A stretch of 64,000 nt of DNA from Myxococcota bacterium (GCA_036012755.1 DASCPX010000129.1:253027-317026), one strand, 5' to 3'. Positions 33,549 to 51,462 are shown, counted from the first letter of the stretch. Made by a program: numbers and translations. The notes: generated by a model from the sequence alone, not told the origin.

Positions 33549-34280
33549 ATGTTTCGCGTGGTGCTCCTGCTGCATGTCCTCGCCGCTGTCGCTGGCGCCT
33601 GGTTCGTGGGTCCCTGGTTTCCCGTAGCGGTCGTGTCCTCGCTCCTGCTCTTCATCGGCTTCGCTTCGAGCCACCCTGGTTGGGGCCTGTTCGGGCCGGC
33701 CGTGGTTCGGGGCGCCGGGGGCGATCGGGTCTCGCTCACCTTCGATGACGGGCCTCATCCAGACTCGACGCCAGCGCTCCTCCAGGCCCTGCGCGATGCC
33801 GAGATGCGCGCCACCTTCTTCGTCCTCGTCGATCGCTGTGAGCAGTGGCCGGAGCTGTTGAGCGCGATCGCGGCGGAGCACGAGGTCGGCCTGCACGGGC
33901 TCCGGCACCATCCCTGGATCGCGCTCTGGCCACCGGAAAGAGGCGCAGAGGAGCTGCGGGAGGCCAGGCGGCGCCTCGCTGAACTCTGCGGAGAGGAGAT
34001 CGCTCTGTACCGTCCCCCCTTCGGCATCACCTCGCCCAGGATGGTCGAGGCCGTCAAGGCGGTGGGGCTCCGCACGATCTGGTGCTCCATGCGGCCTCTC
34101 GATGGCATCTCCGGGGAGCCCGACCGCCTCCTGCACCTGTGCAAGGAGGCGCGCGGCGGTGACATCGTCCTCTTGCACGAGGGCCCGAACCGGCCCGCGG
34201 CTGGTGTGCTCGCGGATGTCCTCGCCGACTTCCGACAGCGGGGCTTGCGCTCCGTCACCGTGGGGGAGCTGCTCGCATGA
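33549..34280 (+). CDS. Polysaccharide deacetylase (NodB family) with N-terminal TM segments
   Basis: LTFDDGP, ATFFV, HEVGLHGLRH, YRPPFG, IVLLHE; start approximate. Confidence 0.92.
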   Translation: MFRVVLLLHVLAAVAGAWFVGPWFPVAVVSSLLLFIGFASSHPGWGLFGPAVVRGAGGDRVSLTFDDGPHPDSTPALLQALRDAEMRATFFVLVDRCEQWPELLSAIAAEHEVGLHGLRHHPWIALWPPERGAEELREARRRLAELCGEEIALYRPPFGITSPRMVEAVKAVGLRTIWCSMRPLDGISGEPDRLLHLCKEARGGDIVLLHEGPNRPAAGVLADVLADFRQRGLRSVTVGELLA

Positions 34281-35914
34281 AGCTGCTGGTGACCGGAATA
34301 GGCGCCTGGAGCGCCGCTGGTCGCGGAACGGGTGCCCTGGTCGAGCTCCTCGAGTCTCGCCGAGCCGCCTTCTCCGCGGAGCCGCCCTACCCGAGCGAAG
34401 GTCTCTACGCGCCCCGCTGCGGCCTGACCGAGGTCGAGCGCGACCGGCCCGCCGAGACCCTGCTCCTCGGCGCGGTCAGGGAGGCCCTGGCCCACGCCTC
34501 CTTCGGCGAGGGTCGCCTGGGCCTGGTCGTCGGCACTTCCAGCGGCAACATCTGCGGACCCTGGGAGCGCTGGCATCGCGCCCACCTCGCCGGAGAGCCT
34601 GCCAGCGAGGAGGGGACCTGGCGCCAGGACCCCACCAAGGTGGTCGCAGAGGCCATCGGCGCTACCCGCCATGCCACCGTCAGCGTCGCTTGCGCCAGCG
34701 GCACCGCCGGCTTCGTGCTGGCCCAGGGATGGCTCGCGGATGACCTCGTCGATGCCGTCGTCGTGGCCGGGGTCGATGCCCTCTCTCTCTACGTGCACGC
34801 CGGCTTCAACGGGCTTGGTGCACTCTCGAAGAGCCAGCCCCGGCCCTTCCATACCGAGCGGGACGGGCTCCTGCTCGGCGAGGGCGCGGCTGCGGTCCTC
34901 GTCGAGGTCGAGGCTCATGCCTGGGGCCGCGGCGCTACGTCGCTCTGCGAGCTCTGCGGCACGGGTCTGTCCGCGGATGCGGTCCACATGACCGCTCCGG
35001 ATCGCCAGGGAGGCGGTGCCGCTCGGGCGATGCAGGCTGCCCTGGACGACGCAGGGGTGGGAGCCGAGGCCATCGATCTGGTCTCCCTCCATGGCACGGC
35101 CACCTCCTTCAACGACGCGATGGAAGCCCACGCTCTGCAGCGTGTCTTCGGGGATCGCCCGCTGCCGCTCTTCGGCGTGAAGCAGGCCGTCGGCCACACC
35201 CTTGGTGCTGCCGGGTCCCTCGAGGCCACCGTCGTGGTCGAGGTCCTCTGCAGCGGACGGGTCCCACCGGCCCCGGAGATCGACGAGGAGCTGCCTGTGT
35301 CCTCGCAGCGGTTTCCTTCGGCCCCGCGGATTGCGATCTCGACGAACTCTGCCTTTGGGGGGGCCAACGCAGCGGCGGTCCTTGCTGCGCCGGGCGCTGT
35401 CCCCGAGTTGGTTCGCGAGCCCCGAGAGGTCATCGAGCTGGCTTCTGCCAGAGTGGAGATCCCCGAAGGCAAGGTGGACTGGAGTGCCCTCTGGGCAGCG
35501 CCGCCGGAGCGCTTCAAGAGGCTCAATCGCTATGTGCGCGTCGCGCTGGTGGCGATGAACCGTGTGCTGTCGGAGGTCGAGATCGGCCCGGACATCGGGG
35601 TCGTGCTGGCGTCGGAGAGCAACTGCCGGGCGACGGATCTGCGCTACCACCAGAAGCTGCTCCAGCGTGGGGCGGCCCAGGCGCCGAGGGTGGAGTTCAT
35701 CTACACGATCCCTGGGGCGCCGAGTGGAGAGGCAGCGATCCTCTGGGGGCTGCAGGGGCCCTCGATGGTCCTCTGCGGGCCGATGTCGGAGGCCGTGGAG
35801 GAGGCCAAGCGGATGATCCGGTGGGGCAGGGCTTCTCGGCTCGTGGCGCTGGGCATCGAGGCTCCGGAGCCCAGGGGTGCGGCCTGGGCGGAGGCGGTGC
35901 TGCTCGGTCACTGA
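34277..35914 (+). CDS. Beta-ketoacyl synthase fused to a C-terminal CLF-like domain
   Basis: SVACASG, LHGTAT, GHTLG, NSAFGG, then about 170 aa with RFKRLNR...EFIYTIPGAPSGE..ILWGLQGP. Confidence 0.88.
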   Translation: MKLLVTGIGAWSAAGRGTGALVELLESRRAAFSAEPPYPSEGLYAPRCGLTEVERDRPAETLLLGAVREALAHASFGEGRLGLVVGTSSGNICGPWERWHRAHLAGEPASEEGTWRQDPTKVVAEAIGATRHATVSVACASGTAGFVLAQGWLADDLVDAVVVAGVDALSLYVHAGFNGLGALSKSQPRPFHTERDGLLLGEGAAAVLVEVEAHAWGRGATSLCELCGTGLSADAVHMTAPDRQGGGAARAMQAALDDAGVGAEAIDLVSLHGTATSFNDAMEAHALQRVFGDRPLPLFGVKQAVGHTLGAAGSLEATVVVEVLCSGRVPPAPEIDEELPVSSQRFPSAPRIAISTNSAFGGANAAAVLAAPGAVPELVREPREVIELASARVEIPEGKVDWSALWAAPPERFKRLNRYVRVALVAMNRVLSEVEIGPDIGVVLASESNCRATDLRYHQKLLQRGAAQAPRVEFIYTIPGAPSGEAAILWGLQGPSMVLCGPMSEAVEEAKRMIRWGRASRLVALGIEAPEPRGAAWAEAVLLGH

Positions 35915-36831
35915 CGCCCCGAGATCTCTCCTTGGGTCACCTTGTCGATGAAGGGCACTGAAGCGTTCGCCAGCAGCACGCCCAGGAGCACGCCATCCGG
36001 GTAGGGCGTGTAGTAGCGAAGGAGCATGGCGTAGCCGGCCGCCAGCACGCAGAAGATCAGCCGTCCGGGTCGCGAGAAGGGGGTCGTCACCGGGTCGGTC
36101 ACGATGAAGAACGCTGCGAGCAGGGCGCCGCCTCCGAAGAGCTGGAGGAGGGGGTCGCCCTCCAGCCAGGGCGCGTGGCCCTCCATGCGTGCTCCGGCTG
36201 GGAGGAGGAGGGCGCAGACCGACACCGCAGCGAGGTAGACCAGCGGCATGCGGAAGTCGATGGTCCGCAGTCCGATCAGCAGGATCCCGCCTGCGATCAA
36301 GGCAAGAGGTGCCGCCTCGCCCAGGGCGACCGAGGCTTCTCCCAGGACCATTCCGCCCAGCGCTGGAGCGCTGGACCCCAGCTCGGTGGAGAGGGGCGTA
36401 GCGTGGCTGATGCCGTCCACTTCCCACTCGGGCTTCAGGAAGACGGAGGGAGCGACCCCCATCATCACGGCCAGACCCAGGGCCGCCGGGTTGAAGGGGT
36501 TCTTGCCCAGGCCGCCGAAGGCGTGCTTGCCGACGAGGATGGCGAGCGCGCTTCCGCCCACCGCGGCCCACCACGGAGCAGTGATGGGCAGCATGAGCGC
36601 CACGAGCAGGCCGGTGAGCACCGCGCTGCCGTCCAGCGCCTGTTGGCGGTCACAGATCGCGTCCAGGACCCAGGCTGTGGCGATGGCCAGGCCGAGGAGC
36701 ATCAGCGCGTCGGCGCCATGTCGCCAGACCGCAGCGACACACACAGGCGCCAGGGCGACGAGCACCTGGACCATGAGCGTGCGGGTCCGTCGCCCGCTGT
36801 GGATGGCCGGCCCGGCTCCGTGCTCGGTCAC
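35908..36831 (-). CDS. rnfD: RnfD/NqrB-family membrane subunit
   Basis: KHAFGGLGKNPFNPAA, VDGISHATPL (FMN-Thr site), FFIVTDPVTTP, YPDGV...LLAN. Confidence 0.9.
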   Translation of the reverse strand: MTEHGAGPAIHSGRRTRTLMVQVLVALAPVCVAAVWRHGADALMLLGLAIATAWVLDAICDRQQALDGSAVLTGLLVALMLPITAPWWAAVGGSALAILVGKHAFGGLGKNPFNPAALGLAVMMGVAPSVFLKPEWEVDGISHATPLSTELGSSAPALGGMVLGEASVALGEAAPLALIAGGILLIGLRTIDFRMPLVYLAAVSVCALLLPAGARMEGHAPWLEGDPLLQLFGGGALLAAFFIVTDPVTTPFSRPGRLIFCVLAAGYAMLLRYYTPYPDGVLLGVLLANASVPFIDKVTQGEISGRQ

Positions 36832-37238
36832 AGGTAGAACAGGGGCCCGAGGGCGTAGTAGATGCAGCCGACCACCAGTACTCGAAGGACCGCGCTGCGC
36901 CGTGGGTTGCTCTCGTCGTCGAGTCGTCGTCGCCAACCGTCCACCAGCGCCCCGCCGACGAGCCAGACCGCTGCGGCGACGAGGGCCGACGCCAGGTCAG
37001 GGTAGGCGGGCAGGGCGAGCAGGAAGACCGCCGGGGCCAGTCTCGGCGCCCGAGCACACACGACGAGGCCCACAGCAAGCGGCACTGCAAAGGGGGGCAG
37101 CGCTACGAGGTGCTGGATCGCCCAGGCCAGCACCGGCACCAGGGCAGCCAGCTGCCAGCGTCGCGAGCGCTCCTTGAGGAACAAGGCGCTGACCGCGAGG
37201 GCGGCACACACGGCGCTCGCGGGGACCATCAACGTCAC
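36828..37238 (-). CDS. Small polytopic membrane protein, possibly a divergent RnfA/E-like subunit
   Basis: 136 aa hydrophobic; coupled on both sides; VCAALAVS and LVVGCIYY segments. Confidence 0.55.
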   Translation of the reverse strand: MTLMVPASAVCAALAVSALFLKERSRRWQLAALVPVLAWAIQHLVALPPFAVPLAVGLVVCARAPRLAPAVFLLALPAYPDLASALVAAAVWLVGGALVDGWRRRLDDESNPRRSAVLRVLVVGCIYYALGPLFYL

Positions 37239-37630
37239 TGGTCGACCCCGGTGGTGGAACGCCAGGCGGCGAGCCGCTCGTCGAGTGCCGCGGCCAGGAC
37301 CCTGGACGAAACGGTGGCGCCGCTCACGGCATCGACAACTGTCGGTGGGGTGGCTTCCTGGCCTTGGTAGGCGGCGAGGTGCTCCACGCTGAGGGCGTCG
37401 TGCTCCAGGCCTTCCCGGGAGCGGAGGAGGACCACCTCCTCGATGCGCTCGCCTCGGATCACCACCAGTCCCTCGATCGGTCCCTGCATTCCATCAGCGC
37501 AGAAACACACCACCGCATCCCCGGAGCTCGCCTGCCGCTGTTGCGCCACCTGCTCGCAGGGTGCGGGCGAGCTGACCCAGACCAGACCTGCCGCTGCCAC
37601 CAGGCCCAGCGCGGTCATGCCGCGCTTCAT
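37235..37630 (-). CDS. FMN-binding domain protein (RnfG-like, short)
   Basis: N-terminal TM; DGMQGPI; VDAVSGATVSS flavinylation motif; ATGA overlap. Confidence 0.85.
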   Translation of the reverse strand: MKRGMTALGLVAAAGLVWVSSPAPCEQVAQQRQASSGDAVVCFCADGMQGPIEGLVVIRGERIEEVVLLRSREGLEHDALSVEHLAAYQGQEATPPTVVDAVSGATVSSRVLAAALDERLAAWRSTTGVDQ

Positions 37631-38742
37631 CCCCCTGCTCCGAGCCGGACCTTCACCGCGCGCAACCTCTCTACCAGGGGCAGGTGCGCCGCACAGGAGT
37701 ACTCGCAGACGCCGCACTCGATGCACAGCAGCGCGCTCGGGTGGGGATGGTCGACGAGGAGCCCAGCGGGCAGGTCGAAGGGACATGCCTGGAGACAGTC
37801 GCCACAGCGCAGGCAGGAGCCGGTGGAGGTGTGGCGGGTCTGGGCCCGAGTCAGGGCCAGGATGGCGGTCGTTCCCGCTGTCACTGGAGCATCCAAGGCC
37901 ACGGGGGACCCCATCATCGGCCCGCCAGCGAGGACCGCCGCGGCGCGGTCCAGATCCGTCCTGCAGTGATCGAGCACGCGACCCACCTCGGTGCCGACAG
38001 GGACGATGTAGTTCCCAGGCTGGCCGACCGCCTCGCCGTCCACCGTGATCACCCGTTCCAGGAGCGGGCGGCGCTCGCACACCGCCAGGTGGAGGTGACG
38101 GGCCGTCTGTGTATTGATGACCAGCGCGCCGACATCCGCGGGGCGGCCTCCCGGTGGCACCTTTCGCCCCGTGAAGTCCTGCACCAGGAGCGTCTCGTAG
38201 CCGTGGGGGTAGCCCTTGTCGTCCCGGGCGATGAGACCGTTGTCCGCGCCCACCGCCCGCATCGCGATGCGCAAGCCGCACTCCACCTCGTCGCGGTGCT
38301 CGACCAGGACGCGCCCGTCTGCGGTGACGAAGGGCTCGCTCTCCCGGCCATTGACGAGCACCGTGTCGATCGGTGTCCCGACCGCCAGCTTCGCCCACGT
38401 GGGGAACATGGCACCGCCCATTCCCACCAGACCTGCGTCACGAACGAGGTCCACGAGCTCGCCTGGCGACAGTTGGTCCGGATCCCGGTGGGTGTCGCTC
38501 CGCTCCGGAGGTTCCCAGACACCCTCGATGGCGATCCGGGACTCATCCACGCCGACCACCACCCCGCTCAGCGGCGTGTGACGACTCGCCCCCTCCCTGG
38601 AGCGCGCGACCAGCATGCCGGCCGTCACGGACTGGCCAGGCCGCACCACCGGCTCCAGCTCTTCGATGGGCAGACGTACGCCGAGTGGTGCGATCGGGCG
38701 GATCGGCAGGTCCGCGCACCCCTTGTTGGCCGGGATCCTCAG
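37627..38742 (-). CDS. rnfC: RnfC-like NADH/FMN/2x[4Fe-4S] subunit (probable CTG start)
   Basis: HTPLSGVV, AGLVGMGGAMFPT, NGRESEPFVTAD, GGPMMG, CLRCGDCLQACP, CIECGVCEYSC. Confidence 0.88.
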   Translation of the reverse strand: MRIPANKGCADLPIRPIAPLGVRLPIEELEPVVRPGQSVTAGMLVARSREGASRHTPLSGVVVGVDESRIAIEGVWEPPERSDTHRDPDQLSPGELVDLVRDAGLVGMGGAMFPTWAKLAVGTPIDTVLVNGRESEPFVTADGRVLVEHRDEVECGLRIAMRAVGADNGLIARDDKGYPHGYETLLVQDFTGRKVPPGGRPADVGALVINTQTARHLHLAVCERRPLLERVITVDGEAVGQPGNYIVPVGTEVGRVLDHCRTDLDRAAAVLAGGPMMGSPVALDAPVTAGTTAILALTRAQTRHTSTGSCLRCGDCLQACPFDLPAGLLVDHPHPSALLCIECGVCEYSCAAHLPLVERLRAVKVRLGAGG

Positions 38743-39035
38743 GGACTCATCTCGTCGGGCCGGTGGCACTCTGCACACTGGGCGTGGAAGCCGGATTCAT
38801 GACAGGTCAGGCAGGAGCCGGCGTGGGCCGAGGCCACCAGCGAGTGCTCGTCCCTGGCCTCCGGGCTTTCCCACGGTCGTCGGAAGGCAGTCGTGTGGGT
38901 GGAGGGCACGAACCGAGCGTGGCAGTCCCCACATGCTCCGGCGCTGTCGTGTGTGGGCCCGGGCGCCGGCCTCGCCAGCGAGCCCAGGGACACGAGCGCC
39001 AGCGCCGAGGCTCCGAAGAGGAGCGACCACCTCAT
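38739..39035 (-). CDS. Small periplasmic triheme cytochrome c
   Basis: Signal peptide; CGDCH, CLTCH, CAECH. Confidence 0.88.
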   Translation of the reverse strand: MRWSLLFGASALALVSLGSLARPAPGPTHDSAGACGDCHARFVPSTHTTAFRRPWESPEARDEHSLVASAHAGSCLTCHESGFHAQCAECHRPDEMSP

Positions 39036-42000
39036 CGGGTGGCCCCCAGGTCGATCCAGCGGATCAACGCAAGCAGCTCATCCTCCGCGAGCACGGTGGG
39101 GTGTGCGGGCAGGTCCCGCGGTGCGTCCAGCTCCTCTGCGGTGAGCACCTCGATCAGCCAACTCCGGCTCGCGAGGGCTTCGCTGTGGGCGACATGCTCT
39201 CGGAGCTGCTCGAAGGCGTCTTCGCCCTGCAGATCCAGCGAGCTGTCTTCGCCGTGGCAGTCCGTGCAGCGCGCCTCGATGATCGGTCCAATGTCCTCGT
39301 CGAAGATCACCGAAGTCAGCTCCAGATCCTCACCGTAGTTGACCGGCTCCGTCTTGTGGTGGCCCGGGTCGTCCCAGGTCGCCGCGGTGCGCGAGGCCGA
39401 GGTCACCGCATCGACCGTGCCGAAGGTGTCGCTCGGCCGACCGGTCAAGGAGCCGTGGCAGCCGCCGCAAGCCTGTGGGAACAGCGTGTACGGGACCGAC
39501 ATCGAGAACTCCTCGCCGGGGAGGCCGTACATCCAGCGACCCATGGATCGCAGCGCCATGAACCGGGAGTTCAGGGCCTGGAGGGTGAAGCTCAGGCCCG
39601 AAGGCACGACGAAGTGGGCCGATCCGTCCTCTTCGAGCGGCACCTCGATGACCAGCGCTCGACGGGGCGGCCCGGTGTCGCCCTCGCGCTGGGGCAAGGC
39701 TGCCACCACCCGTAGCGCAGCCACCCGGTCCTCCTCTGGCACGGGCTGCCCCGAAATCGGGTCGATCGGTAGCGCGATGCTCTTTGGCCCCTGCGGATAC
39801 GGGCGCTCGAAGATCGCATCGACCAGCCTGTAGTCGTAGACCTTCACGACCATGGGGACGTCATCGGGGTAGCCCTCGAAGCCGCGCACCTGTCCGACGG
39901 GGCCGCTGTGGTGTTCCGCGGCAACGAGCCGCTTGTCCACGGACTCCTTGGCCCGCACGACCACGGGCCGCGGCCACAGCTCTGCCCGGTCGGAGCTCAC
40001 CTCCACCACACGCTGGTAGGGACCAGCCGCGAAGCCGTCTTCGGACTGCAGCGAGGGGTCCGGGATCAGCCTCAGGATGTCGAAGTCCGGCGCCTCGTCA
40101 GGATCCGACAGGTCGATCGGACCTGGCGCATGGGCCACGAGCAGGCTGCCGTCGGGCAGTGGATAGGGGTCGCGGTAGGCCCCGCCGCTGGAGATGCCCT
40201 TGAAGGTGACGGCGGGATCGAGCTGGATCCAGCCAGGGACGAAGCGGTGCGCAGCGCTCTGGGCCGCTGGCTCGGGGTGATCGAGGTCGTCGACCGGGTT
40301 GTCCGGTTCGACGGTGACGCCGAGCTGGTGATCGGCCAACAGCAGCGTGCCGCCCCACCAGGAGTCTGCGTCGCGGCCGATGCGGACCTCGAGCCCGTTT
40401 GGCAGTTCCCGGTCGTCGCTGTGGATCGGTACTCCCGAGCGGTTTCCGTTGTGTGGGTGGAAGTCCGACCCGTCCACGTGGAGGCGGAACAGCGCGCCGT
40501 TGAAGTAGGGGCGGTCCTGCTCCCAGCCGACGCGCAAGAAGGTCATCACCGGGGATCCGTCCGAGCGCATGGTGGGACGTCGGACCTGGTCGACGCTGTA
40601 GGTCATGCGCTTGAGCGAACGCTCGAAGGTGGAGCGCTCGGCGCCTGGGGTGGCCAGTCGAAGACGGAACGCGTCGTAGCGGGGAGCCATGCGCTGCTCG
40701 GCTTCGATCGCGAAGTGGGTGGTGGAATCGCAGGGTGCGGGCAGCGGCCGATCCAGCTCGAGGTGACCGGCCGTGTGGCGCGCGACGCGGCGGATCTCCC
40801 CGGCGTTGGTGCCGCGCACGAACGCGATGCGCCGGCCGTCGAAGGTGCCAGGACGCTCGGTGAGCTGCCGGTCCTCGACCGTGAGCGTCGAGCCGCCTTC
40901 GGCCTCGCCCAGGATCGCCTCCGGGCTGCTGCGTGCCCACTCGTCGAGGTGGTTGGACATCACGATCAGGTCCACCCGGGAGAGGTCGAGGCCGTCGCGA
41001 TCGTCCTCGTCGGGCACATACAGCGGCTCTACGAAGTGGTGGCGACTGTCATTCGAGAAAGTGAGCTGCCGCGCCTCGCCGGTGGCCAGCTCGATCTCCC
41101 AGATGTCGAAGGGCTCCTCCTCCGAGCGCCGCATCGCGAAGGCCACGCGGGAGGCGTCGTAGCTGACGTCCGGCGCCCGGATGTCCGCTTCGCCTGCGGG
41201 TGACAGGGCCGCCGAGAGCACCGTCTGGCCGTCGTCCTGCTGCCAGATCAGCTCCGCGCCCGGGTAGTAGGTGTCTGACTCGAAGAAGCGCTCGGGGGTG
41301 TGGCGGTCGCGGCGGACGAAGATCAGGCCGCGCTGCTCTCCCAGGGGTGCTCCGGCGCGCTCCGTCAGCTCAGCCGCTTCCAGCTCGAGCCAGCGGACCA
41401 GCACCTCGAAGTCCGGGTCTCCCCGGGAGAGGAACTGGTTGCCCCCCTTGTGGACGACGCCGCCCTCGCTCACGGGGATGTTCTTCAAGAGCTGCTTGGA
41501 CTGCGTCACGTCCCCGGACAGGTGGACGAGGCGGGTGGTCTCGCCGAGCATCGCCTGGCGGTTCGCCTCGAGCATCGCAGGGGTGAAGCGGCCCGGGAGC
41601 GAGGGCAAGCCCGGGTCCAGCTTGAGATCGTTGAAGGCCATCGTCCCGTGACAGCTGCTGCCCATGCAGGTCTTGCGGGCGAGGATCGGCGTCACCTCGG
41701 CGCCGAAGAAGCGGCCCGCCTCGGTGGGCTCGGGAGCAGGGGTTCGCTGGTCGACCGCCGAGCGCTCGGCCTCGATCCAGTCCAACAGCGCCCGGTACCC
41801 GGGGTCCTCCTCGTCTGTGAAGACCTCGGGGTGCGAGCGGGGGTAGTTCGACAGCACAGCTGCCAGCGGGGCGCGGGCGAGGGGGCTGGCCGGCGCAGGC
41901 GCGCCGAGGTCCAGGGGCTGCAGCAGGTCTTCACCCGCTCTGCCGGTGCAGCGGTCGTAGGCAGTCTGGATGTGTTCCGCGGGAACCCGGCCGCTGGGGT

Positions 42001-42202
42001 CCACCGGCCAGACGAGCAGCCAGGGGTCGTCGGCGTCCTGTTGCAGCTCGGCGAAGGTCTCCCTCGACACGCCGTGGCAGTTGCCACACCGCGCGTCCAG
42101 CACCGGCACCACCTCGCTCGCGAAGCGGGACAGGGGAGTCACCTCGGTCGGGCGCTCGGCGCAGGCGAGCAGGACCGCAGCGACGGCACCGGAGTGGGTC
42201 AT
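39032..42202 (-). CDS. Hydrazine synthase alpha (HzsA)-like multiheme lipoprotein
   Basis: MTHSGAVAAVLLAC; TolB-like propeller (PDVSYDASRVAFAMR, RQLT); YRDPYPLPDG; VPLEEDGSAHFVVPSG...LQALN...CGGCH; hemes CGNCH, CMGSSCH, CGGCH, CTDCH. Confidence 0.72.
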   Translation of the reverse strand: MTHSGAVAAVLLACAERPTEVTPLSRFASEVVPVLDARCGNCHGVSRETFAELQQDADDPWLLVWPVDPSGRVPAEHIQTAYDRCTGRAGEDLLQPLDLGAPAPASPLARAPLAAVLSNYPRSHPEVFTDEEDPGYRALLDWIEAERSAVDQRTPAPEPTEAGRFFGAEVTPILARKTCMGSSCHGTMAFNDLKLDPGLPSLPGRFTPAMLEANRQAMLGETTRLVHLSGDVTQSKQLLKNIPVSEGGVVHKGGNQFLSRGDPDFEVLVRWLELEAAELTERAGAPLGEQRGLIFVRRDRHTPERFFESDTYYPGAELIWQQDDGQTVLSAALSPAGEADIRAPDVSYDASRVAFAMRRSEEEPFDIWEIELATGEARQLTFSNDSRHHFVEPLYVPDEDDRDGLDLSRVDLIVMSNHLDEWARSSPEAILGEAEGGSTLTVEDRQLTERPGTFDGRRIAFVRGTNAGEIRRVARHTAGHLELDRPLPAPCDSTTHFAIEAEQRMAPRYDAFRLRLATPGAERSTFERSLKRMTYSVDQVRRPTMRSDGSPVMTFLRVGWEQDRPYFNGALFRLHVDGSDFHPHNGNRSGVPIHSDDRELPNGLEVRIGRDADSWWGGTLLLADHQLGVTVEPDNPVDDLDHPEPAAQSAAHRFVPGWIQLDPAVTFKGISSGGAYRDPYPLPDGSLLVAHAPGPIDLSDPDEAPDFDILRLIPDPSLQSEDGFAAGPYQRVVEVSSDRAELWPRPVVVRAKESVDKRLVAAEHHSGPVGQVRGFEGYPDDVPMVVKVYDYRLVDAIFERPYPQGPKSIALPIDPISGQPVPEEDRVAALRVVAALPQREGDTGPPRRALVIEVPLEEDGSAHFVVPSGLSFTLQALNSRFMALRSMGRWMYGLPGEEFSMSVPYTLFPQACGGCHGSLTGRPSDTFGTVDAVTSASRTAATWDDPGHHKTEPVNYGEDLELTSVIFDEDIGPIIEARCTDCHGEDSSLDLQGEDAFEQLREHVAHSEALASRSWLIEVLTAEELDAPRDLPAHPTVLAEDELLALIRWIDLGATR

Positions 42203-45033
42203 TCGATCGAGCGGAGGTAGCGAACCAGGCACTCCAGCTCCCAGATGGACAGCTGCGAGGTGGTTCCGTGGGTGTCGATCAGGCCGTTGTGCTCGTTGAG
42301 GCCCGTTTCGCCGGGACGCAGGGCCGGGTGGTCGGGGGTGGCAACCACCTCTCGCAGGCTCAGGGCGCCGCCGTGGTGCAGGAAGCGGGGTGGCCGGGAC
42401 CACAGACCGCGGAGCGATGGCGCGACGAAGTGGCCCTCGTGAGCCTCGACGCGCCCCTCGTCTCCAGTGTCCCAGTAGCGCGAGAAGCCGTTGATCCAGT
42501 CGATGCGGTCTGCGCTGACCAGGCTGTGCACGTTGTCCCGAGCCGCCGGGGTGACGAGCGGCGGGAAGGCCTTGTTGTCGTTGTGCACGTGGACCTTGTC
42601 GGTGAAGGTGGGCGCCGGGTGGCAGCCGGAGCACCCCGTCGTGGGGCTCTCGAAGAGCTGTCGCCCCTGCGCCACCATCGGGTCGTCAGGTGACACCGGG
42701 TTTGGGAGCAGCCGGGGCTCCGCTCCTTGATAGACGCCGATGAAGCGCTGGAGGTCCCGAAAACCCCAGGGCTGGCCGAAGACCTCCTCGGACGTGCGCT
42801 GGAAGAACACCTCCCGCCGATACACGAGATCGGCGACTTCGGAGTCCAGTCGCGTCCCCGCCGTCACCAGGGTGTCGGCGGAGTGGGAGAAGGACTCGCG
42901 CTCTTCCGCTGGCGCGAACATCGCGCTGAAGTCACCCACTGGTGTGTCGCCCTGGAAGTCCACCAGCGGGTTGTGCTCCATCATCATCGTGAGCGGCTCA
43001 TCGATCGAGAGCACGCCCTCCTGGAAGAACGGCACCTCCTGGAAGAGGTTGCGGATGTCGGGCACCGCCCGGCTCCCCCCGGTCCGCTCGGCTCCGCCTC
43101 GGCTCTGGCCCATCACCTGGCTGACGCTCCAGGCCTGGCCGTCCGACGTGTCGCGGTAGTGGCAGTGCACGCAGCTCTGGTCTCGATCAACCGAGAACAA
43201 GCTCGTCTGGACGAAGAGCTCGCCGCGTTCGAAGTCGTCGGCCGGGAACCGAGGGGCGTCCGGCTCCAGCACGAGCTCGTCCCGCTCACCGGTCTCGAGA
43301 TCGACGAAGCTGAGTGTGTCGCCGAGCTGATCCGCCACCACGAGCTCGTCGCCGGCTACCGCCAGTCCGACCGGCTTGAGCCCGGTGTCGAAGACCAGGC
43401 CGGGCGTCAGGTGCTGGGGGCCCGCTACGCGCCACTGTTGGACCTGGGAGGTTCCGGACATCGTCACGTAGAGGTGCTCGCCACTCCGCTCGATCTGCTC
43501 CGGGAAGGCGCCCACCACCTGCATCAGCTCCGGGGCCACGTCCCCCTTGATGTCCCCGGCCATGGCCTCGAAGGTGTCGGAGGTGTACCGGGTGAAGTCC
43601 GGGTTCGAGACGTAGGCGGCGACCGAGTCGACCGAGGGGTCGAGGACCACGATGTCGTTGCTGATGTCGCGGAACTTCTCCTGGGCGGTCCCGTCCACGG
43701 CCTCGTAGGGCCCGAGCGGCTCCTGCTGTGCCAGCGGCAGCACACGGCCGGTGTCCGGATCGCGGAACATCGTGAACTCGGTCTCCGGGTGGTCCCGATC
43801 GGTGCTCTCGCGTCCGGGGTCGTGCTCCTTGGGGTGGCCCGAGCCCACGCCGAGGGTGGCGAAGACGAGCCAGTCATCGACGGCCGCGATGTCGTTGACA
43901 GGTGACCGGGTGAAGATGCGGCGAGTCTCCTCCAGCGTCGCGACGTCGATCACCGAGACGTCCAGCGTGCCGGTGTTGGCTACGTACAAGGTCCCGCCAT
44001 CCGGCGACAGCGCCAGGTCCCGCGGCCCGTGGCCCACAGAGATTCCGGGACCCTCTGTGCCTGCGGCGATCCAGGCCCGCAGCCGCTGGAGGTCCGGGTC
44101 CTCCGGATCGTCGAAGACCACGCCCCCTGCGTGGTGGCGGCCGTCGGCGGCGTCGGCGGTGCCTCCGTCGGCAACAGACAGGCCGATGCGGATCAGCGAG
44201 CTCGCCTCTGGTTCGCCCGGGAACACGTGGACGATCGCGCTGCTCAGCGCCTCTTCCGCGTCCGGTCCGGCCACGAAGCCCCCTGCCCGGTATTGGTGGC
44301 AGCCCGAGGTGCCGCATCGAGCGCGCAGGATCGAGCGCAGGCCGGCCGAGGTGCGTCGGGCGGGGGTCTTGCCATCCGCCGAGGTGGGCTCTGTCGGGCC
44401 GAGGAAGGCCTCGCGGTCGAAACCGAGCGTCACGACGGATCCCGCCAGCGTTTCCCCGCGCTGGTCCAGCTCGACGACCAGGACCTGGTTGTGCCAGGAG
44501 TTCGTGACGAAGAGGCGCTCGCCGTCTATGCCGAACACCAGGTCTTCACAGTAGAAGGGGACCGGGATCTCGCTGGTGACCCGATCGGTGGCGGTGTCGA
44601 TCACGGACATGAAGTTCGAGAACCGGTTCGTCACCACCAGCCAGCGGCCGCTCGGGTGGAGCGCCATCCCCTGGGGGGAGTGCCCCACCTCGATCCGGCC
44701 CCGCTCCACGTGGGAGCGGACATCGACCAGCACCAGCGACGAGCCCGGCCTGCTCTCCGTCCCCGAGAGCGTGACCCACGCCCAGGCACCATCGGCGCTG
44801 GCCACGACCCGCTGGGGCCGCGCTCGCGGGATGCGTTCCCCCGCGCCCGGATCGGGATTCGCGACGGGCTCCAGGGAATGGCGGGCCCAGGCATCGACAG
44901 GTCCGTCGGCCTCTGGCGGATCGACGCGGGCCTCACCCAGCAGGGAGACGCAGATCCCCACCACCAGCGCGGCCACGGACAGGCCCACGACGACGCGGTC
45001 GCCGGGCCAGAGCCGCGCGAAGTCGCCGCTCAA
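42199..45033 (-). CDS. YncE/YVTN beta-propeller fused to a diheme CCP/MauG-like domain (HzsBC-like architecture)
   Basis: N-terminal TM; VGHSPQGMAL and LYVANTG...VSVID repeats; CGTSGCH, SCVHCH, GCSGCH; APSLRGLW...FLHHG. Confidence 0.8.
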   Translation of the reverse strand: MSGDFARLWPGDRVVVGLSVAALVVGICVSLLGEARVDPPEADGPVDAWARHSLEPVANPDPGAGERIPRARPQRVVASADGAWAWVTLSGTESRPGSSLVLVDVRSHVERGRIEVGHSPQGMALHPSGRWLVVTNRFSNFMSVIDTATDRVTSEIPVPFYCEDLVFGIDGERLFVTNSWHNQVLVVELDQRGETLAGSVVTLGFDREAFLGPTEPTSADGKTPARRTSAGLRSILRARCGTSGCHQYRAGGFVAGPDAEEALSSAIVHVFPGEPEASSLIRIGLSVADGGTADAADGRHHAGGVVFDDPEDPDLQRLRAWIAAGTEGPGISVGHGPRDLALSPDGGTLYVANTGTLDVSVIDVATLEETRRIFTRSPVNDIAAVDDWLVFATLGVGSGHPKEHDPGRESTDRDHPETEFTMFRDPDTGRVLPLAQQEPLGPYEAVDGTAQEKFRDISNDIVVLDPSVDSVAAYVSNPDFTRYTSDTFEAMAGDIKGDVAPELMQVVGAFPEQIERSGEHLYVTMSGTSQVQQWRVAGPQHLTPGLVFDTGLKPVGLAVAGDELVVADQLGDTLSFVDLETGERDELVLEPDAPRFPADDFERGELFVQTSLFSVDRDQSCVHCHYRDTSDGQAWSVSQVMGQSRGGAERTGGSRAVPDIRNLFQEVPFFQEGVLSIDEPLTMMMEHNPLVDFQGDTPVGDFSAMFAPAEERESFSHSADTLVTAGTRLDSEVADLVYRREVFFQRTSEEVFGQPWGFRDLQRFIGVYQGAEPRLLPNPVSPDDPMVAQGRQLFESPTTGCSGCHPAPTFTDKVHVHNDNKAFPPLVTPAARDNVHSLVSADRIDWINGFSRYWDTGDEGRVEAHEGHFVAPSLRGLWSRPPRFLHHGGALSLREVVATPDHPALRPGETGLNEHNGLIDTHGTTSQLSIWELECLVRYLRSIE

Positions 45034-45164
45034 GGCCCCCCCGAGCCCCCGACATCGGCCTGGCTCAACAGGGCGATGAGCTTGGGGTCGCCTTGGGCCA
45101 CGGCGTCGTGCACCGCTGCAGCCCGCAGGACGAATCTGCGAGAGGGCTTGGCTTCGTCGGACAT
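45030..45164 (-). CDS. Putative 44-aa leader ORF of the Hzs-like operon
   Basis: MSDEAKPSRRFVLRAAAVHDAVAQGDPKLIALLSQADVGGSGGP; TGA overlaps the next TTG; TAGGCT 8 nt upstream. Confidence 0.45.
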   Translation of the reverse strand: MSDEAKPSRRFVLRAAAVHDAVAQGDPKLIALLSQADVGGSGGP

Positions 45165-45218
45165 GGGGGCCAAGCCTACTCTCGGCGGTGCGAGCGGGTC
45201 ATGGGCGACAATGGGCCC
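45165..45218. promoter_or_regulatory. Putative divergent, near-leaderless promoters
   Basis: TAGGCT (-, 45178-45173) 8 nt before ATG 45164; GACAAT (+, 45207-45212) 6 nt before ATG 45219; no SD. Confidence 0.4.
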
Positions 45219-45911
45219 ATGCTTGCCTCACCGATCGCCTCCTCTGCCTTGTTCCTGCTGCTGCTCCCTCTGCTCGGAGCTGCCCGCGGCGAACCTGCCG
45301 CCGAGGTCGTCGAGGGGGTTGCGGGGGACGCCAAGGGAGGTGCCATCCTGATCACCGAGGACGGTCGCGTCTTGTACCTGGTGGGCCTGGACTCCTGGCC
45401 ATCCTGGGCGCTGGGCCATCCCGTGACAGCGACCGGGACCGTCTCGGAGCAGGACTACCTGCCCAAGGCCACGCAGGACAAGGACGGCGCCTGGACCCAG
45501 GGCACCACCGGCGGCAAGGACACGGTCCTGCAGAGCACCGGCTGGTACATGCACGCGCCCCCAGCGCCCTGGAGCGTCAGCTACTCGGACGGCTCTGGCA
45601 ACGCCTCGCGTCTCTGGGCCGACGAGGAAGGCGTGGGCTGGAGCTACGACCCGGTGCAGCCCGCCCAGAGCTCGAGCGGGACCTACTCCGGCGGAGAGCC
45701 AGCGGCAGGAAGCCTCGAGCCGGAGCAGGCTGGACAGCTCTGGAGCAGGATGGTGGAGCTGGAGGTCTCTCCGCAGCACCACGCCCCCCAGCGAGCGAAG
45801 GGGACGGGGGCTTTCTCCATCACGACGCCAGACGGCGAGCGCGGCTTCCTGGTGGTCTCGGACGCGGCCTCTGGCTTCGACGTGATGTTGAAGCAGCTCC
45901 GAGGGCTCTGA
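45219..45911 (+). CDS. Hypothetical secreted protein
   Basis: Signal peptide ...LLLLPLLGAARG; DGSGN...YDPVQPAQSSSGTYSGG segment. Confidence 0.7.
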   Translation: MLASPIASSALFLLLLPLLGAARGEPAAEVVEGVAGDAKGGAILITEDGRVLYLVGLDSWPSWALGHPVTATGTVSEQDYLPKATQDKDGAWTQGTTGGKDTVLQSTGWYMHAPPAPWSVSYSDGSGNASRLWADEEGVGWSYDPVQPAQSSSGTYSGGEPAAGSLEPEQAGQLWSRMVELEVSPQHHAPQRAKGTGAFSITTPDGERGFLVVSDAASGFDVMLKQLRGL

Positions 45912-45914
45912 AGG

Positions 45915-48833
45915 TCAGCTCGGCCGCACGACGACCCCCACCCCCGAGGAGGCGTGGATGCGAGCCTCGAGGGGCTCTGGCAGTCGCACGTGGCGGACCC
46001 CCTCCGACTCCGCGACCACGGGCAGCGACTCGAGCCAGTCGAGGTCGATGCTGCCGTCGCCGGTGGCGAGGTCGATGGTGAAGTAGGCGACTCGGAGCGA
46101 GGTGATGTTGTGGAAGAAGTGCGTGCCCAGTGATGGGTCCACGCGGAAGCCGGGGGAGGCCAGCTCGACCATCACGCGGGCGGCCGAGATCTGGTGCCAT
46201 GCGACCGGGATGCCGAGGTGGGGATCGGCGGTGCCCCACCGTCCGGGGGCGACGAGCAGGTAGGGCCGACCAGCTGCGGAGAGGCCGGCGTTCATGGAGT
46301 CGATCACGCGGGCCATAGCTCGAGTTCGAGGCACCTCGAAGCGCTGAGGGTGGACATAGATGACGTCCTGGATGTCGCTCACGACGCCGTGGCCCATTGC
46401 GCTCCCCCTCACCAGCGCCAGCTCGCCTTCTCGGATTCCCGCGGGCTCCGCCTCCTCTGGGAAGCGCTCGCGGACGAAGGGCCGGAGCTGGACGACGGCG
46501 AGCTCTGGCACTCCCCGGGCGCCCACCAGGTCCACGGCGAACTCGATCTCCACCGGAGTGCCGAAGCCGGCGGTGCCCATGTCCAACAGATCGCTGAGCA
46601 ACGGAGCGAGCGGAAAGCCGTCGTAGCGCAGGATGCTGGAGAAGTTGACGAGACGGGTCCCGGGGACATGGATCGAGTCCACGACGCGGTCATCTGCGGC
46701 TACGTAGGTAGCGCCCACAGGCGCCAGGGTCCCGTCGGCTTCGGCCACCGACAGCGGGCAGCGCGTCAGGCCCGGCTCTGCAGCGAGGAAGGGGCTGGCC
46801 ATGTCGAGAGCCAGGAACTCGCGCTGTGAGTACCTCAGCGCCGCGGCGGGCGAGGAGAGCTGGATCTCCAGAGCCGGGCGTCGGGGACAGAATCTGTATG
46901 CATTCTCCCCGTCCGCCACGACCTGACCCAGCCCGAGGGCGCTCACGGCGAGCCCGTCGTCGGGGTCCAGGCGCCCGATGGGGTAGAAGTTCCGCGACTG
47001 GGCGACCCCGGCGAAGTCCGGGTAGAAGCGATCTCCGTGACGCCGGCCCACGAGCCGCTGCACGATCACCCCCATCTTCTCCTCCTCCGAGCGCATGCCC
47101 GCTGCGCTCATGGAGCGCTGCGGACCGGTGAAGAAGGTGGAGGCGAAGACGATGCGGATCGCGCGGGACAGCTGCTCCAGTCGTTGTCGGGCGTCTGGGG
47201 CGTTGTTGGGGAGCAGGATCGTGCGATAGAGCCCGGCGAAGGGCTGGAACGGGGAGTCCTCGTAGAGACTGGAGGAGCGGACGGCCAGCGGGTACTGCAC
47301 GTTGGCGAGGAGGGCCTCGAGGTCGTGGGCGAGGCCCGTCCCCAGCGGGTGGCGCAGGAAGAGGGCCGCGATGTCCTCGTCGGAGTCCATCTGGAGCGCC
47401 TGCTCCCGAAGACCGTGGCGGTCGCACCAGGCGTCGAACACATCAGTGCAGATCGCGGTCGCTCGGGGAACGAAGACCCGGACATCCGGGTAGCGCTCGG
47501 CGATACCCGCGCTCGCGAGCTGGGCCGAGGCGAAGGCGATCCCGCGGCCCTTGCCGCCCATGGAGCCGCTGCCGAGGCGGGTGAAGTCCACGCTGAGGTG
47601 ATCCGCACCGCGCACGTAGTCCGCCACCTGGCCGCGCTGGCGGGCCTCCAGGAAGCGGCTGAAGATGTCGTGCAGCCACTGGCGGGCGCCCTCCGGATCG
47701 TCGAACTCGGCGTAGGTGCGGGCCCGGACCTTTCCGGCGAGATCGAAGAGCCCACGCGCCATCAGCCAGTTCGAGAAGTGGTTCCGCTCGGCGTGGTAGC
47801 GAAGCGAGCTCCCCGGGATGCTGTCGAGGATCTCGATCATCGCCCGCAGATCCTTCGCCTTGGTGACCATCTGGCCGTCTTCGCCCCGGAACACGAAGGC
47901 CCCGAAGCCGAGGTGGTCGAGCATGAACTGCCGCAACTCCTTGAGGAGCTCCGGCGAGTTCTTGTCGGCCCAGCCGACCTCCAGCTGCTCTGCGGTGACG
48001 TCGAGCTCGTCTTCGGCCGACTGGAGCAGGACGGCGAGATCCGGCATCCGGTTGCGGACGCGCCGGACGAGACGGATGCCCGCGGTCGGATCGAGCTTGC
48101 CCTTTCGCGGGAACTGCAGGTCGCAGACGATCCCGAGCAGGTAGTTCTGGTAGCGGCGGAGCAGCTTGTCGGCCTCTTCATAGGTTCGCGCAAGCAGGAT
48201 TCGCGGCCGAGCCCGCATGCGGTACATGCGGTCGGCCTCGTTCAGGCCTGCCGGCATCAGCGAGCGGGTCTGCTCCATCAGCTCGCGGTACATGATCGGC
48301 AGGTAGGAGGAGTAGAAGGCGGGGGAGTCCTCGACGAGGATCAGGACCCGTACGTTCCCCTTGCGCGTGTCACGGGCGACGTTCTCCAGGTCCTCGACCA
48401 GCTTGACCATGGCGAACAAGACCCCCGGGTCGCCGGTCCACTGGAAGACGTGATCGAAGGGGTCGCCGCGGTCCAGGTAGCTCCGGGCCGTGACCTGGTC
48501 GTGGCTGAGCATCACGACCGGGAGCTCCGGGAGCTTCCGCTTCAGCTCTCGGACGAAGCGCGTCGGGGTCAACTCGGCGCAGTTGGGAGTGGTCACGACG
48601 AGGTCGGGGCGCTTCTCTCGTGCGAGGCGCAGGGCGTGCCGGGCGGAGGTCACCTGGTGAAACCGCGGTGACGACGCGAGGTTGAGCCGGATGTACTCCG
48701 CGAACAGCCGCTCCCCGAAGCGGCCGTCTTCCTCCAGGACGAAGCAGTCGTAGGGGCTGGCGACGAGGAGGATGTCCTCGACCCGGTGGCGCATCAGCGA
48801 CCGGTAGGCGCTGAAGCCAGTGGGCTCGGCCAC
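45915..48833 (-). CDS. Receiver-domain / PEP-pyruvate-binding (PPDK_N) domain protein
   Basis: ILLVASPYD, ILVEDS receiver, GGKGRG, LAVRSSSLYED...FAGLY, PGRWGTADP, SLGTHFFHN. Confidence 0.9.
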   Translation of the reverse strand: MAEPTGFSAYRSLMRHRVEDILLVASPYDCFVLEEDGRFGERLFAEYIRLNLASSPRFHQVTSARHALRLAREKRPDLVVTTPNCAELTPTRFVRELKRKLPELPVVMLSHDQVTARSYLDRGDPFDHVFQWTGDPGVLFAMVKLVEDLENVARDTRKGNVRVLILVEDSPAFYSSYLPIMYRELMEQTRSLMPAGLNEADRMYRMRARPRILLARTYEEADKLLRRYQNYLLGIVCDLQFPRKGKLDPTAGIRLVRRVRNRMPDLAVLLQSAEDELDVTAEQLEVGWADKNSPELLKELRQFMLDHLGFGAFVFRGEDGQMVTKAKDLRAMIEILDSIPGSSLRYHAERNHFSNWLMARGLFDLAGKVRARTYAEFDDPEGARQWLHDIFSRFLEARQRGQVADYVRGADHLSVDFTRLGSGSMGGKGRGIAFASAQLASAGIAERYPDVRVFVPRATAICTDVFDAWCDRHGLREQALQMDSDEDIAALFLRHPLGTGLAHDLEALLANVQYPLAVRSSSLYEDSPFQPFAGLYRTILLPNNAPDARQRLEQLSRAIRIVFASTFFTGPQRSMSAAGMRSEEEKMGVIVQRLVGRRHGDRFYPDFAGVAQSRNFYPIGRLDPDDGLAVSALGLGQVVADGENAYRFCPRRPALEIQLSSPAAALRYSQREFLALDMASPFLAAEPGLTRCPLSVAEADGTLAPVGATYVAADDRVVDSIHVPGTRLVNFSSILRYDGFPLAPLLSDLLDMGTAGFGTPVEIEFAVDLVGARGVPELAVVQLRPFVRERFPEEAEPAGIREGELALVRGSAMGHGVVSDIQDVIYVHPQRFEVPRTRAMARVIDSMNAGLSAAGRPYLLVAPGRWGTADPHLGIPVAWHQISAARVMVELASPGFRVDPSLGTHFFHNITSLRVAYFTIDLATGDGSIDLDWLESLPVVAESEGVRHVRLPEPLEARIHASSGVGVVVRPS

Positions 48834-48837
48834 GGCC

Positions 48838-50220
<1,383 letters not shown>

Positions 50221-50470
50221 TCAGGATAATGCCTGCGGCGCCTCGAGCGATCGACACTGCGCTCGCCCGTGGGGGGCCTTTCGCGCATTTGGCGCCATCG
50301 ACCTTCCCAACGGCGAGATCGGCCTGTTTGGCGACGGCGCGGTCCCCCGCCCTCCCCAACGAAGCGCCCGCTACGGAGCCTTCGAATCGAGCGCGGTGAG
50401 CACCATGAGCAGCTCGTCCCTGAACGAGGTCAAGGCACCCTCGTCGAAGCCCCCGTTGGGGGTCCCATGC

Positions 50471-51315: not shown

Positions 51316-51462
51316 GCTCAGTCGAACAAGCCGATGCGCTCCCAGGTTCCGGGAATCTGCGCGTCTTCGACGTGCAGGGCCAGTGCTTCGATGGAGGCTT
51401 CTCGCTGGGCCTTCATCGACGGTTATAGGCCCCGGTCCGTCTCCGCCGACAAAAGAGGTTCA

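Follow-up and report, generated by a model that had tools for sequence, protein, structure and literature searches.

We analyzed a 64,000-nucleotide stretch of DNA from a Myxococcota bacterium (GCA_036012755.1 DASCPX010000129.1:253027-317026), hereafter the window, and found on its minus strand an operon of seven consecutive co-directional genes, A to G (35908-45033), which probably encodes a periplasmic multihaem oxidoreductase resembling hydrazine synthase (HZS) that is wired via a trihaem cytochrome to a cut-down flavin path and NAD(H). The two large haem proteins, A and B, are true homologues of HZS in sequence and in fold, and they are not HZS itself. An earlier note, made from the DNA sequence alone, had proposed a periplasmic haem enzyme tied to NAD(H) through repurposed Rnf subunits, and that proposal is supported by the HZS homology and by the conserved linkage to Rnf genes described below.

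Proteins A and B are homologues of hydrazine synthase

Gene A (42199-45033, minus strand) was identified from Pfam/NCBIfam matches, profile searches and a structural model, and encodes a beta-propeller/di-haem fusion protein of 944 amino acids with, on our reading of the N terminus, a single N-terminal hydrophobic anchor. YVTN/YncE-type repeats form a seven-bladed HZS-beta-like propeller, which is joined to an HZS-gamma-like di-haem domain, and a helical insert in the propeller bears an extra CX4CH haem motif (C240x4C245H246). Residues C245, H246, C621, C624, H625, C801, C804, and H805 are invariant in 33 sequences, and the first cysteine of the CX4CH motif is nearly so. A profile of 33 A homologues matched HZS-beta (5c2v_B) at 5.3e-23 over the N-terminal half and HZS-gamma (5c2v_C) at 5.4e-10 over the C-terminal third, the latter in four collinear stretches of which the first, second, and fourth carry the score. 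When the gamma-like part alone was compared with all PDB sequences, only HZS-gamma was matched (5e-4), and no bacterial cytochrome c peroxidase (CCP) or MauG chain was found at E <= 10. The HMMER alignment to HZS-gamma ends just before the position of gamma-His144 and of the CCP/MauG tryptophan, so that the equivalent residue could not be placed. The AlphaFold2 model of A has a predicted local distance difference test (pLDDT) score of 72.8, with a good propeller and a poor gamma-like part, and its top Foldseek match is 5c2v_B (1.4e-16; template modeling (TM) score 0.67 by target). The earlier note had described A as a propeller joined to a di-haem CCP/MauG-like protein: the propeller and the di-haem part stand, and membership of the CCP_MauG family falls away, the match to PF03150 scoring 17.6 bits against a gathering cut-off of 25.6. 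The match to the MbnH family (22.1 bits) is also below its cut-off.

Gene B (39032-42202, minus strand), identified by the HZS_alpha family PF18582, profile searches and a model, encodes an HzsA-like lipoprotein of 1056 amino acids with the lipoprotein box LLAC. An N-terminal helical extension of about 290 residues carrying two haems is followed by a TolB-like propeller, then by the middle domain of HZS_alpha, and at the C terminus by a haem domain with a local match to hydrazine_alpha. The haem motifs of B are C179x4C184H185 and three CxxCH, all four of which are invariant in 24 sequences. Five collinear stretches of HZS-alpha (5c2v_A) were matched by the profile of 24 B homologues, with an E value of 9.1e-24 as against 0.013 for the PDB match ranked second. 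The AlphaFold2 model of B is of higher confidence (pLDDT, 84.0; predicted TM score, 0.86), and its top Foldseek match is 5c2v_A (9.7e-26; TM score 0.60 by target), followed by TolB as the next fold at 2.3e-9. The HzsA-like identity first suggested for B is thus borne out both by the domain match, which exceeds the Pfam cut-off (31.3 against 26.6 bits), and by structure, chains of 5C2V ranking first for the separate AlphaFold models of A and B. In a large protein collection in which 8000 candidates were scored, we detected 91 B homologues at E <= 1e-3; those that are named are labeled 'hypothetical' or 'mono/di-haem cytochrome c family'. Against 1.84 billion representatives, the B profile matched 177 proteins at 1e-30, a number that rises to 1643 at 1e-10 and to 8703 at 1e-3, and the wider HzsA-like superfamily is therefore large.

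The remaining genes encode a trihaem cytochrome and a partial Rnf-like module

Gene C (38739-39035, minus strand) encodes a secreted trihaem cytochrome c of 98 amino acids with a signal peptide and three CxxCH motifs. In 18 sequences from the two clades described below, no variation is seen in H64 or in the second and third motifs, and almost none in the first. Gene D (37627-38778, minus strand) encodes an RnfC-type subunit of 383 amino acids, which scored 256.3 bits with the rnfC model TIGR01945 (cut-off, 245.95) and 98.3 bits with Complex1_51K. The protein has no N-terminal signal and is predicted to be cytoplasmic; from its Nuo51-type flavin mononucleotide (FMN)/NADH domain and two CxxCxxCxxxC motifs, it is predicted to bind NAD(H), FMN, and two [4Fe-4S] clusters on the cytoplasmic side. 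Its C-terminal 4Fe-4S region matched RnfB models only far below their cut-offs.

Gene E (37235-37630, minus strand) encodes an FMN_bind protein of 131 amino acids (PF04205, 37.2 bits) with a single N-terminal anchor, predicted to be periplasmic, which occupies the position of RnfG/NqrC. It carries an SGAT motif, and the pattern S-[GS]-A-[TS] is kept in 20/20 homologues. Gene G (35908-36831, minus strand) encodes an RnfD-type membrane subunit of 307 amino acids, which scored 263.7 bits with PF03116 and 218.6 bits with the rnfD model TIGR01946 (cut-off, 207.05); A-[TS] within 'DG-x-[ST]-x-A-[TS]-P/L-L' is kept in 19/19 sequences. The assignments of RnfC, FMN-binding and RnfD proteins made in the earlier note hold at these scores. 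We take the S-[GS]-A-[TS] of E and the A-[TS] of G to be ApbE flavin-attachment sites, as in NqrC/RnfG and NqrB/RnfD, respectively. Attachment of flavin by ApbE to subunits of both kinds finds support in general terms in 10.1101/2024.03.13.584918 and PMC12174285. By these motifs, E and G would both be flavinylated.

Gene F (36828-37238, minus strand), which lies between E and G, encodes a small polytopic membrane protein of 136 amino acids without a Pfam or NCBIfam match. It is kept in 10 other loci at 28 to 45% identity, and a protein atlas offered no lead on it beyond weak structural resemblances and unnamed clusters, all under 0.9. A degenerate RnfA/E was considered as the identity of F, and such a relationship was undetectable (hhalign probability of 7% against the RnfA/E proteins of the same genome). 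When G, E, and F were predicted together with F as partner, the structure scored 0.31 against a mark of 0.32, a value that speaks neither for nor against their association.

None of the seven operon proteins matches the RnfA/RnfE family PF02508, and no RnfB model passed. In this genome, PF02508 matches are confined to contigs C63 and C71, and two complete loci with RnfD and two RnfA/E genes are found on other contigs than the operon, whose own Rnf copy is 31 to 33% identical to them. Because these two complete loci exist elsewhere in the genome, the operon copy is not a remnant of a housekeeping Rnf; it is an extra, specialized copy.

Linkage of the haem proteins to the membrane module is conserved

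One genome per species was scanned, which gave 51 loci, all of them metagenome-assembled, and these were compared by tblastn with the seven window proteins; linkage was counted only on loci with enough flanking DNA. The clade of the window comprises 30 loci, with B at least 45% identical and the gene order A-B-C-D-E-F-G, and a sister clade comprises 21 loci, with B 32 to 40% identical and the order B-A-...-C-RnfD. Chance falls far short of explaining the A-G arrangement, since dozens of unrelated genomes show the same gene order. A adjoins B in 25/25 evaluable loci of the window's clade and 13/14 of the sister clade. Of the 26 window-clade loci with at least 1.7 kb of downstream sequence, 24 have C and 24 have RnfC, and RnfD is present in 17/19 evaluable window-clade loci and 12/12 sister-clade loci. 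This synteny bears out an expectation of the earlier note, that Rnf genes would be linked to these cytochromes in other genomes. Record labels of the carriers include Acidobacteria, Planctomycetota, Myxococcota, Verrucomicrobia (Akkermansiaceae), Bacteroidota (Maribacter, Reichenbachiella, Saprospiraceae), and Gammaproteobacteria (Chromatiales, Thiotrichaceae, Thiomargarita, Parabeggiatoa), and the linkage to an NAD(H)/flavin membrane module spans at least six phylum-level labels.

The sister-clade order is B, A, an FGE-sulfatase-domain protein, ApbE, trihaem C, RnfD, a NuoF-like protein, and a protein with Fer2_4 and two [4Fe-4S] domains. Here the NuoF-like protein (Complex1_51K and NADH_4Fe-4S) replaces RnfC. 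RnfD and the NuoF-like protein form a single reading frame in six of the ten sister loci that bear the latter (L031, L032, L034, L036, L047, and L048) and are separate in L038, L039, L042, and L043; in L028, RnfD is instead fused to Fer2_4 and 4Fe-4S domains. A fusion of trihaem C to RnfD was ruled out by a frame check, the two lying in different frames and merely adjacent in 12/12 sister-clade loci. An ApbE gene was found within the operon in 11/11 sister-clade loci scanned, one of them as a weak partial match. In the window's clade, L002, L005, and L017 carry it in the gap that separates A from B (3/3 gap open reading frames (ORFs) tested). No ApbE was found in the gap of about 1 kb upstream of B in L023 and L041; in P0027, ApbE is fused to the N terminus of a B homologue. 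The strongest argument that the wiring is functional is that the two clades swap their NAD(H) modules yet keep RnfD, trihaem C, ApbE, and the HZS-like pair.

Some further features of these loci were observed. One or two FGE-sulfatase proteins lie between the HZS-like pair and the trihaem/RnfD genes of the sister clade (for example, L031, 16232-19095; L036, 16374-19078; L047, 17206-19188); the domain is often fused to ApbE and is absent from the window's clade. Several window-clade loci, such as L005 (15262-15963), L013 (14984-15421), and L002 (14988-15614), have an extra ORF without a Pfam match that separates the F homologue from the FMN_bind gene, and this ORF is missing in the window and in the two acidobacterial loci.

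Gene boundaries and haem motifs

Spurious long ORFs are abundant in the window, which has a G+C content of about 69%, and genes were called by third-position G+C together with family matches. It had been claimed initially that seven genes, reaching up to position 45164, were each joined by a four-nucleotide overlap. The seven genes stand, and so do the overlaps at five of the six junctions, which are ATGA or GTGA. At the C/D junction, CTG is the only codon at the four-base position, with no ATG, GTG, or TTG there; D starts at GTG 38778 or GTG 38769. Alignments with D homologues begin at residue 4 of the GTG-38778 form, and in other loci the tblastn matches to C and D share about 12 to 36 nucleotides, so that an overlap of D with C of about 31 to 40 nucleotides is indicated. 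The upper end is not borne out: A begins at TTG 45033, with GTG 44988 as the alternative start, and position 45164 belongs to a 44-codon upstream ORF (45030-45164, minus strand) that is out of frame with A. ATG 45164 was ruled out as the start of A on these grounds and because it is not conserved in the 51 loci. The TGA of the 44-codon ORF overlaps the TTG start of A (TTGA), and no significant match to the ORF was found in 51 related loci (best E, 0.19). It is probably not part of the system and could have arisen by chance in a GC-rich leader or serve to couple translation locally; its product contains a twin-arginine-like stretch, SRRFVLR. A promoter and terminator scan of the operon gave no signal beyond shuffled expectation. 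The count of ten haem motifs given in the earlier note is reached only when the two conserved CX4CH motifs are included, A having CX4CH and two CxxCH, B having CX4CH and three CxxCH, and C having three CxxCH.

Proposed function and alternative explanations

We infer that A, B, and C form a complex on the periplasmic side. In the proposed path, NADH would be oxidized by RnfC (D) on the cytoplasmic side, from which electrons would pass to an ApbE-attached FMN of RnfD (G) in the membrane and on to the FMN of E on the periplasmic side. E-FMN would then reduce trihaem C, which would feed the seven haems of A and B, and these would reduce a small periplasmic substrate; F would be an accessory membrane subunit. 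The enzyme is predicted not to make hydrazine. A nitrogen oxide or hydroxylamine (NO/NH2OH) is our leading guess for the substrate, held with low absolute confidence. An NnrS-DUF1858(-ScdA_N) gene adjoins the operon in 2 of 18 flanks examined, both in acidobacterial loci, NnrU does so in one (L005), and a Cache-type sensor kinase is adjacent in seven; by record label, the carriers include nitrate-storing sulfur bacteria. Outward flow is favored because partial Rnf/Nqr-like modules have been read in this way (PMC8238504), because the gamma subunit of HZS is a reductive NO-binding site (PMC12607021), and because no neighboring gene suggests a lithotrophic donor. The potentials near -330 mV of the HZS entry haems (PMC12607021) also speak for a connection with NAD(H).

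Several observations weigh against this proposal. E scored only 16.1 bits with the rnfG model TIGR01947 (cut-off, 102), F has no relatives of known function in Pfam or NCBIfam, and the window's own operon has no ApbE gene, there being three elsewhere in the genome. The gamma-like part of the A model has a pLDDT below 50 over much of residues 622 to 928, and the chemistry of HZS is not transferable to A and B because the catalytic features of HZS are missing from them. RnfD is lacking from two window-clade loci, L033, in which A and B are followed by unrelated genes, and L015, which ends after E. The hints of NO are limited to 3 of the 18 flanks. Both same-genus genomes searched (73% and 100% complete) lack the operon, which is dispensable to the lineage's core physiology. 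Finally, downhill flow across RnfD/NqrB in Rnf and Nqr runs inward from the periplasmic flavin (PMC12174285), and by this analogy the reverse direction would fit at least as well.

Such an inward flow would use the same hardware: A and B would oxidize a periplasmic donor of very low potential, and electrons would pass from C via E-FMN and RnfD to RnfC and NAD+, in a lithotrophic NAD+-reducing module, possibly with Na+/H+ export through RnfD. Modules with NuoF-like and Fer2_4/4Fe-4S proteins, such as those carried by the sister clade, are also used by NAD+-reducing enzymes. The potential of NAD+/NADH lies close to -330 mV. The entry haems alpha-II and gamma-II of HZS titrate near -330 mV (PMC12607021), and the exergonic path of Rnf (ferredoxin to NAD+) and Nqr runs from RnfG/NqrC-FMN to RnfD/NqrB-FMN, with an ion path in NqrB (PMC12174285). 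We nevertheless regard inward flow, although a serious rival, as unlikely, given that no candidate donor was found among the neighboring genes in the window and the flanks examined, that RnfA/E, part of the Rnf coupling machinery, is absent, and that partial Rnf/Nqr-like modules have been interpreted in print as carrying electrons outward from NAD(P)H (PMC8238504). It is very improbable that the operon encodes an NADH-fed periplasmic peroxidase, in which the gamma-like di-haem domain would act like a CCP and the rest would be its electron supply. The CCP-like spacing of the two haems, the weak CCP_MauG (17.6 bits) and MbnH (22.1 bits) matches in this domain, and a canonical CCP gene near one locus (L041) are consistent with a peroxidase, but both matches are below their cut-offs, the gamma-like part matches only HZS-gamma and no CCP/MauG in the PDB, and a peroxidase would not need a conserved, four-haem alpha-like partner of 1056 residues, adjacent in 38/39 evaluable loci. 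The absence from the operon of any conserved candidate substrate protein, and of a conserved transporter, imelysin, P19, or VIT1 beside the Rnf-linked operon, makes highly improbable a protein- or metal-directed enzyme, whether for MauG/MbnH-like modification of a partner or for Fe/Cu reduction for uptake of the kind suggested for other ApbE-linked systems of the envelope, even though flavinylated gene clusters have been tied to iron assimilation (PMC8238504) and an HzsA-like paralogue of this genome lies in an imelysin/DHOR di-haem/DUF3570/ApbE cluster on contig C117.

A genuine hydrazine synthase, performing cryptic anammox-type chemistry outside Brocadiia, would account for the match in fold and domain order, for the adjacent trihaem cytochrome gene, and for the order of beta-gamma before alpha, which is that of anammox bacteria (PMC12758564). 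It is effectively refuted. The HZS equivalog models were missed by more than an order of magnitude (about 20-fold): B scored 40.7 bits with the alpha model NF052339 (cut-off, 800), in one local stretch at residues 962 to 1010, and A scored 46.6 bits with the beta model NF052340 (cut-off, 560) and 47.0 bits with the beta-gamma fusion model NF052342 (cut-off, 1250). In HZS, one haem has a third covalent bond via gamma-Cys165, and haem alpha-I is ligated by a tyrosine four residues past the motif histidine, that histidine being on zinc (PMC12758564). Between C624 and C801, which belong to the two C-terminal haem motifs of A, the protein contains no cysteine, so that the third thioether cannot exist in it, and there is no invariant cysteine in this region in 33 homologues. 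The alpha-I-type motif of B is C912-G-G-C-H916-G-S-L-T920, with threonine in place of the tyrosine ligand, and the consensus of 24 B sequences at this motif, CxGCHGxLTG, has no tyrosine. Such a loss of HZS-specific residues agrees with the conclusion reached for other non-anammox homologues (PMC12758564). The host also resembles a large heterotroph with fatty-acid/polyene clusters. We therefore retain outward electron flow from NADH to an HZS-like reductase as the preferred explanation.

Genomic setting

The operon lies inside a fatty-acid/polyene-type gene cluster with ketosynthases, acyl carrier proteins (ACPs), a ketoreductase, LolA, and an acyltransferase. Comparison with the same-genus genome G002 delimited a block of about 14.8 kb (35915-50688) between two ketosynthase genes. 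In addition to the operon, this block contains an ORF without a family (45093-45911), a receiver and PPDK_N protein (45915-48833), and a glutamate dehydrogenase (48838-50196). On contig C24 of G002, orthologues of the window genes at 34277-35914 and 50689-52692 are collinear, with about 2.5 kb separating the matched parts; since the matches begin only at residues 35 and 259, the actual distance is closer to 2 kb. The nearest named homologues of a flanking ketosynthase bear mixed labels, Proteobacteria and Alphaproteobacteria and then Myxococcota at 56 to 59%. The block thus interrupts an otherwise collinear ketosynthase/ACP/LolA (aryl-polyene-like) lipid cluster, and either the window gained it or G002 lost it. 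Only 1 of 40 relatives, G013, has a full-length B orthologue (54% identity), other matches being paralogue-level pieces of 32 to 38% identity. The patchy presence, the insertion or deletion relative to the same-genus genome, and the spread across phyla suggest that the module moves horizontally and behaves as a mobile accessory set.

The HzsA-like paralogue on contig C117 (locus L064, 4012-12157) has 963 amino acids and is 31 to 33% identical to B. Its cluster comprises an imelysin (Peptidase_M75), a DHOR di-haem oxidoreductase, the HzsA-like protein, two ORFs without a family, DUF3570, and ApbE, with a transposase fragment at the contig end, so that within a single genome HzsA-like proteins are combined in two different ways with ApbE-dependent flavin systems and a di-haem enzyme. 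Elsewhere in the window, a lipoprotein-type multihaem cytochrome (31288-32181, plus strand) has an LGC lipobox, five CxxCH and CX4CH- and CX3CH-like motifs, and a Cytochrome_C7 match of 28.7 bits. This ORF is antisense to the first 230 or so codons of a 599-residue methyltransferase ORF; because the methyltransferase Pfam matches begin only at residue 264, the methyltransferase probably starts later and the cytochrome is probably real. Several more proteins with seven to nine CxxCH motifs, on contigs C27 (346845-356251, clustered), C190, and C137, make up a rich multihaem complement. An unusual protein of 867 amino acids (27587-30190, plus strand) combines a TonB C-terminal domain, CarboxypepD_reg, Plug, and a TonB-dependent-receptor barrel.

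Significance and comparison with known systems

To our knowledge, hydrazine synthase was long believed to be without relatives, and we know of reports of homologues outside anammox bacteria only from 2023 to 2025, without functional context. The operon gives this family such a context in the form of a trihaem cytochrome partner, a wire of RnfD with RnfC or a NuoF-like protein and with predicted ApbE-dependent flavins, and the NAD(H) pool, and with a defined electron partner, wire, and redox pool the family becomes biochemically approachable. The known flavinylated transmembrane electron paths gain a new architecture, and the operon shows one way in which half of the Rnf complex can be re-used. 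A broader reading, which we consider improbable, is that of a mobile system built on the scaffold ancestral to HZS that uses NAD(H) electrons, spent or gained, for periplasmic N-O/N-N chemistry in many uncultured phyla, including the nitrate-storing giant sulfur bacteria. If true, hydrazine-synthase chemistry would have a hitherto missing branch outside anammox, served by a flavin-based membrane wire of its own. Should the substrate of the operon's enzyme prove to be NO or hydroxylamine, the system would represent an unrecognized source or sink in the nitrogen cycle of marine and sediment environments.

Anammox HZS, as known from Kuenenia stuttgartiensis (PDB 5C2V/5C2W), is the best PDB match in sequence and fold for both A and B, and shares with them a propeller and a di-haem gamma-like part, an alpha-like part made up of a propeller, a middle domain, and a haem at the C-terminal end, and the gene order of beta-gamma then alpha. 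Genes for a small trihaem cytochrome and for a membrane electron module likewise neighbor those of HZS in anammox bacteria. The differences are that identity in structural alignments is about 13 to 17%, that A and B together carry seven haem motifs, including two CX4CH, and HZS four, that B has the two-haem N-terminal extension of 290 residues, and that A and B lack equivalents of gamma-Cys165 and alpha-Tyr591. Unlike the quinol-linked module of HZS, the proposed wire would exchange electrons between A/B and NAD(H) through flavins.

In non-anammox clusters of HZS homologues (clades I-IV of Hagglund et al. 2025, PMC12758564; 'hzs-like', PMC10732223), alpha-like and fused beta-gamma-like genes are co-located and key HZS residues have been lost, as here. 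In clades I to III of PMC12758564, alpha lies upstream of beta-gamma and is accompanied by ABC binding proteins and an FG-GAP/CRTAC1 gene, none of which is seen here, and the eight extra N-terminal haems on the beta-gamma protein of clade I are not seen in A. Some clade IV members may belong to the family described here. The main text of PMC12758564 mentions neither Rnf, outside its reference list, nor ApbE, FMN, NADH, or flavin, and that of PMC10732223 does not mention Rnf. The earlier note knew of no described system with this composition, and our literature searches agree, having found HZS homologues and partial Rnf modules described separately and no description of the combination, although supplementary tables of PMC12758564 and PMC8238504 could list members.

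The complete Rnf (RnfABCDGE) and Na+-NQR complexes resemble the operon in that its RnfC and RnfD pass the NCBI subfamily cut-offs, and that an FMN_bind protein with a flavinylation motif, and a predicted dependence on ApbE, stands in the RnfG position. Unlike them, the operon is without RnfA, RnfE, and RnfB, its E protein misses the RnfG model, it has the extra membrane protein F, and its periplasmic flavin is proposed to be coupled to c-type cytochromes. Partial NQR/RNF-like systems (Meheust et al. 2021, PMC8238504; modeled in 10.1101/2024.03.13.584918) share the concept of a one-way transmembrane flavin path, in which an RnfD/NqrB homologue serves to carry electrons from NAD(P)H to an FMN-binding protein outside the cytosol. 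Those systems have two genes, occur mainly in Actinobacteria and the candidate phyla radiation, and have RnfD fused to an NqrF-type PF00175 domain, with no RnfD flavinylation site. By comparison, the NAD(H) module here is a separate RnfC, or a NuoF-like protein in the sister clade, G consists of PF03116 only, the RnfD flavinylation site is kept, and the partner is a haem enzyme. A precedent for the passage of electrons from Rnf to a c-type multihaem cytochrome is provided by MmcA of Methanosarcina acetivorans (PMC12174285; 10.1101/2022.07.20.500911). That system differs in using a complete RnfABCDGE fed from ferredoxin, and its cytochrome, unrelated in role, serves methanophenazine or extracellular acceptors.

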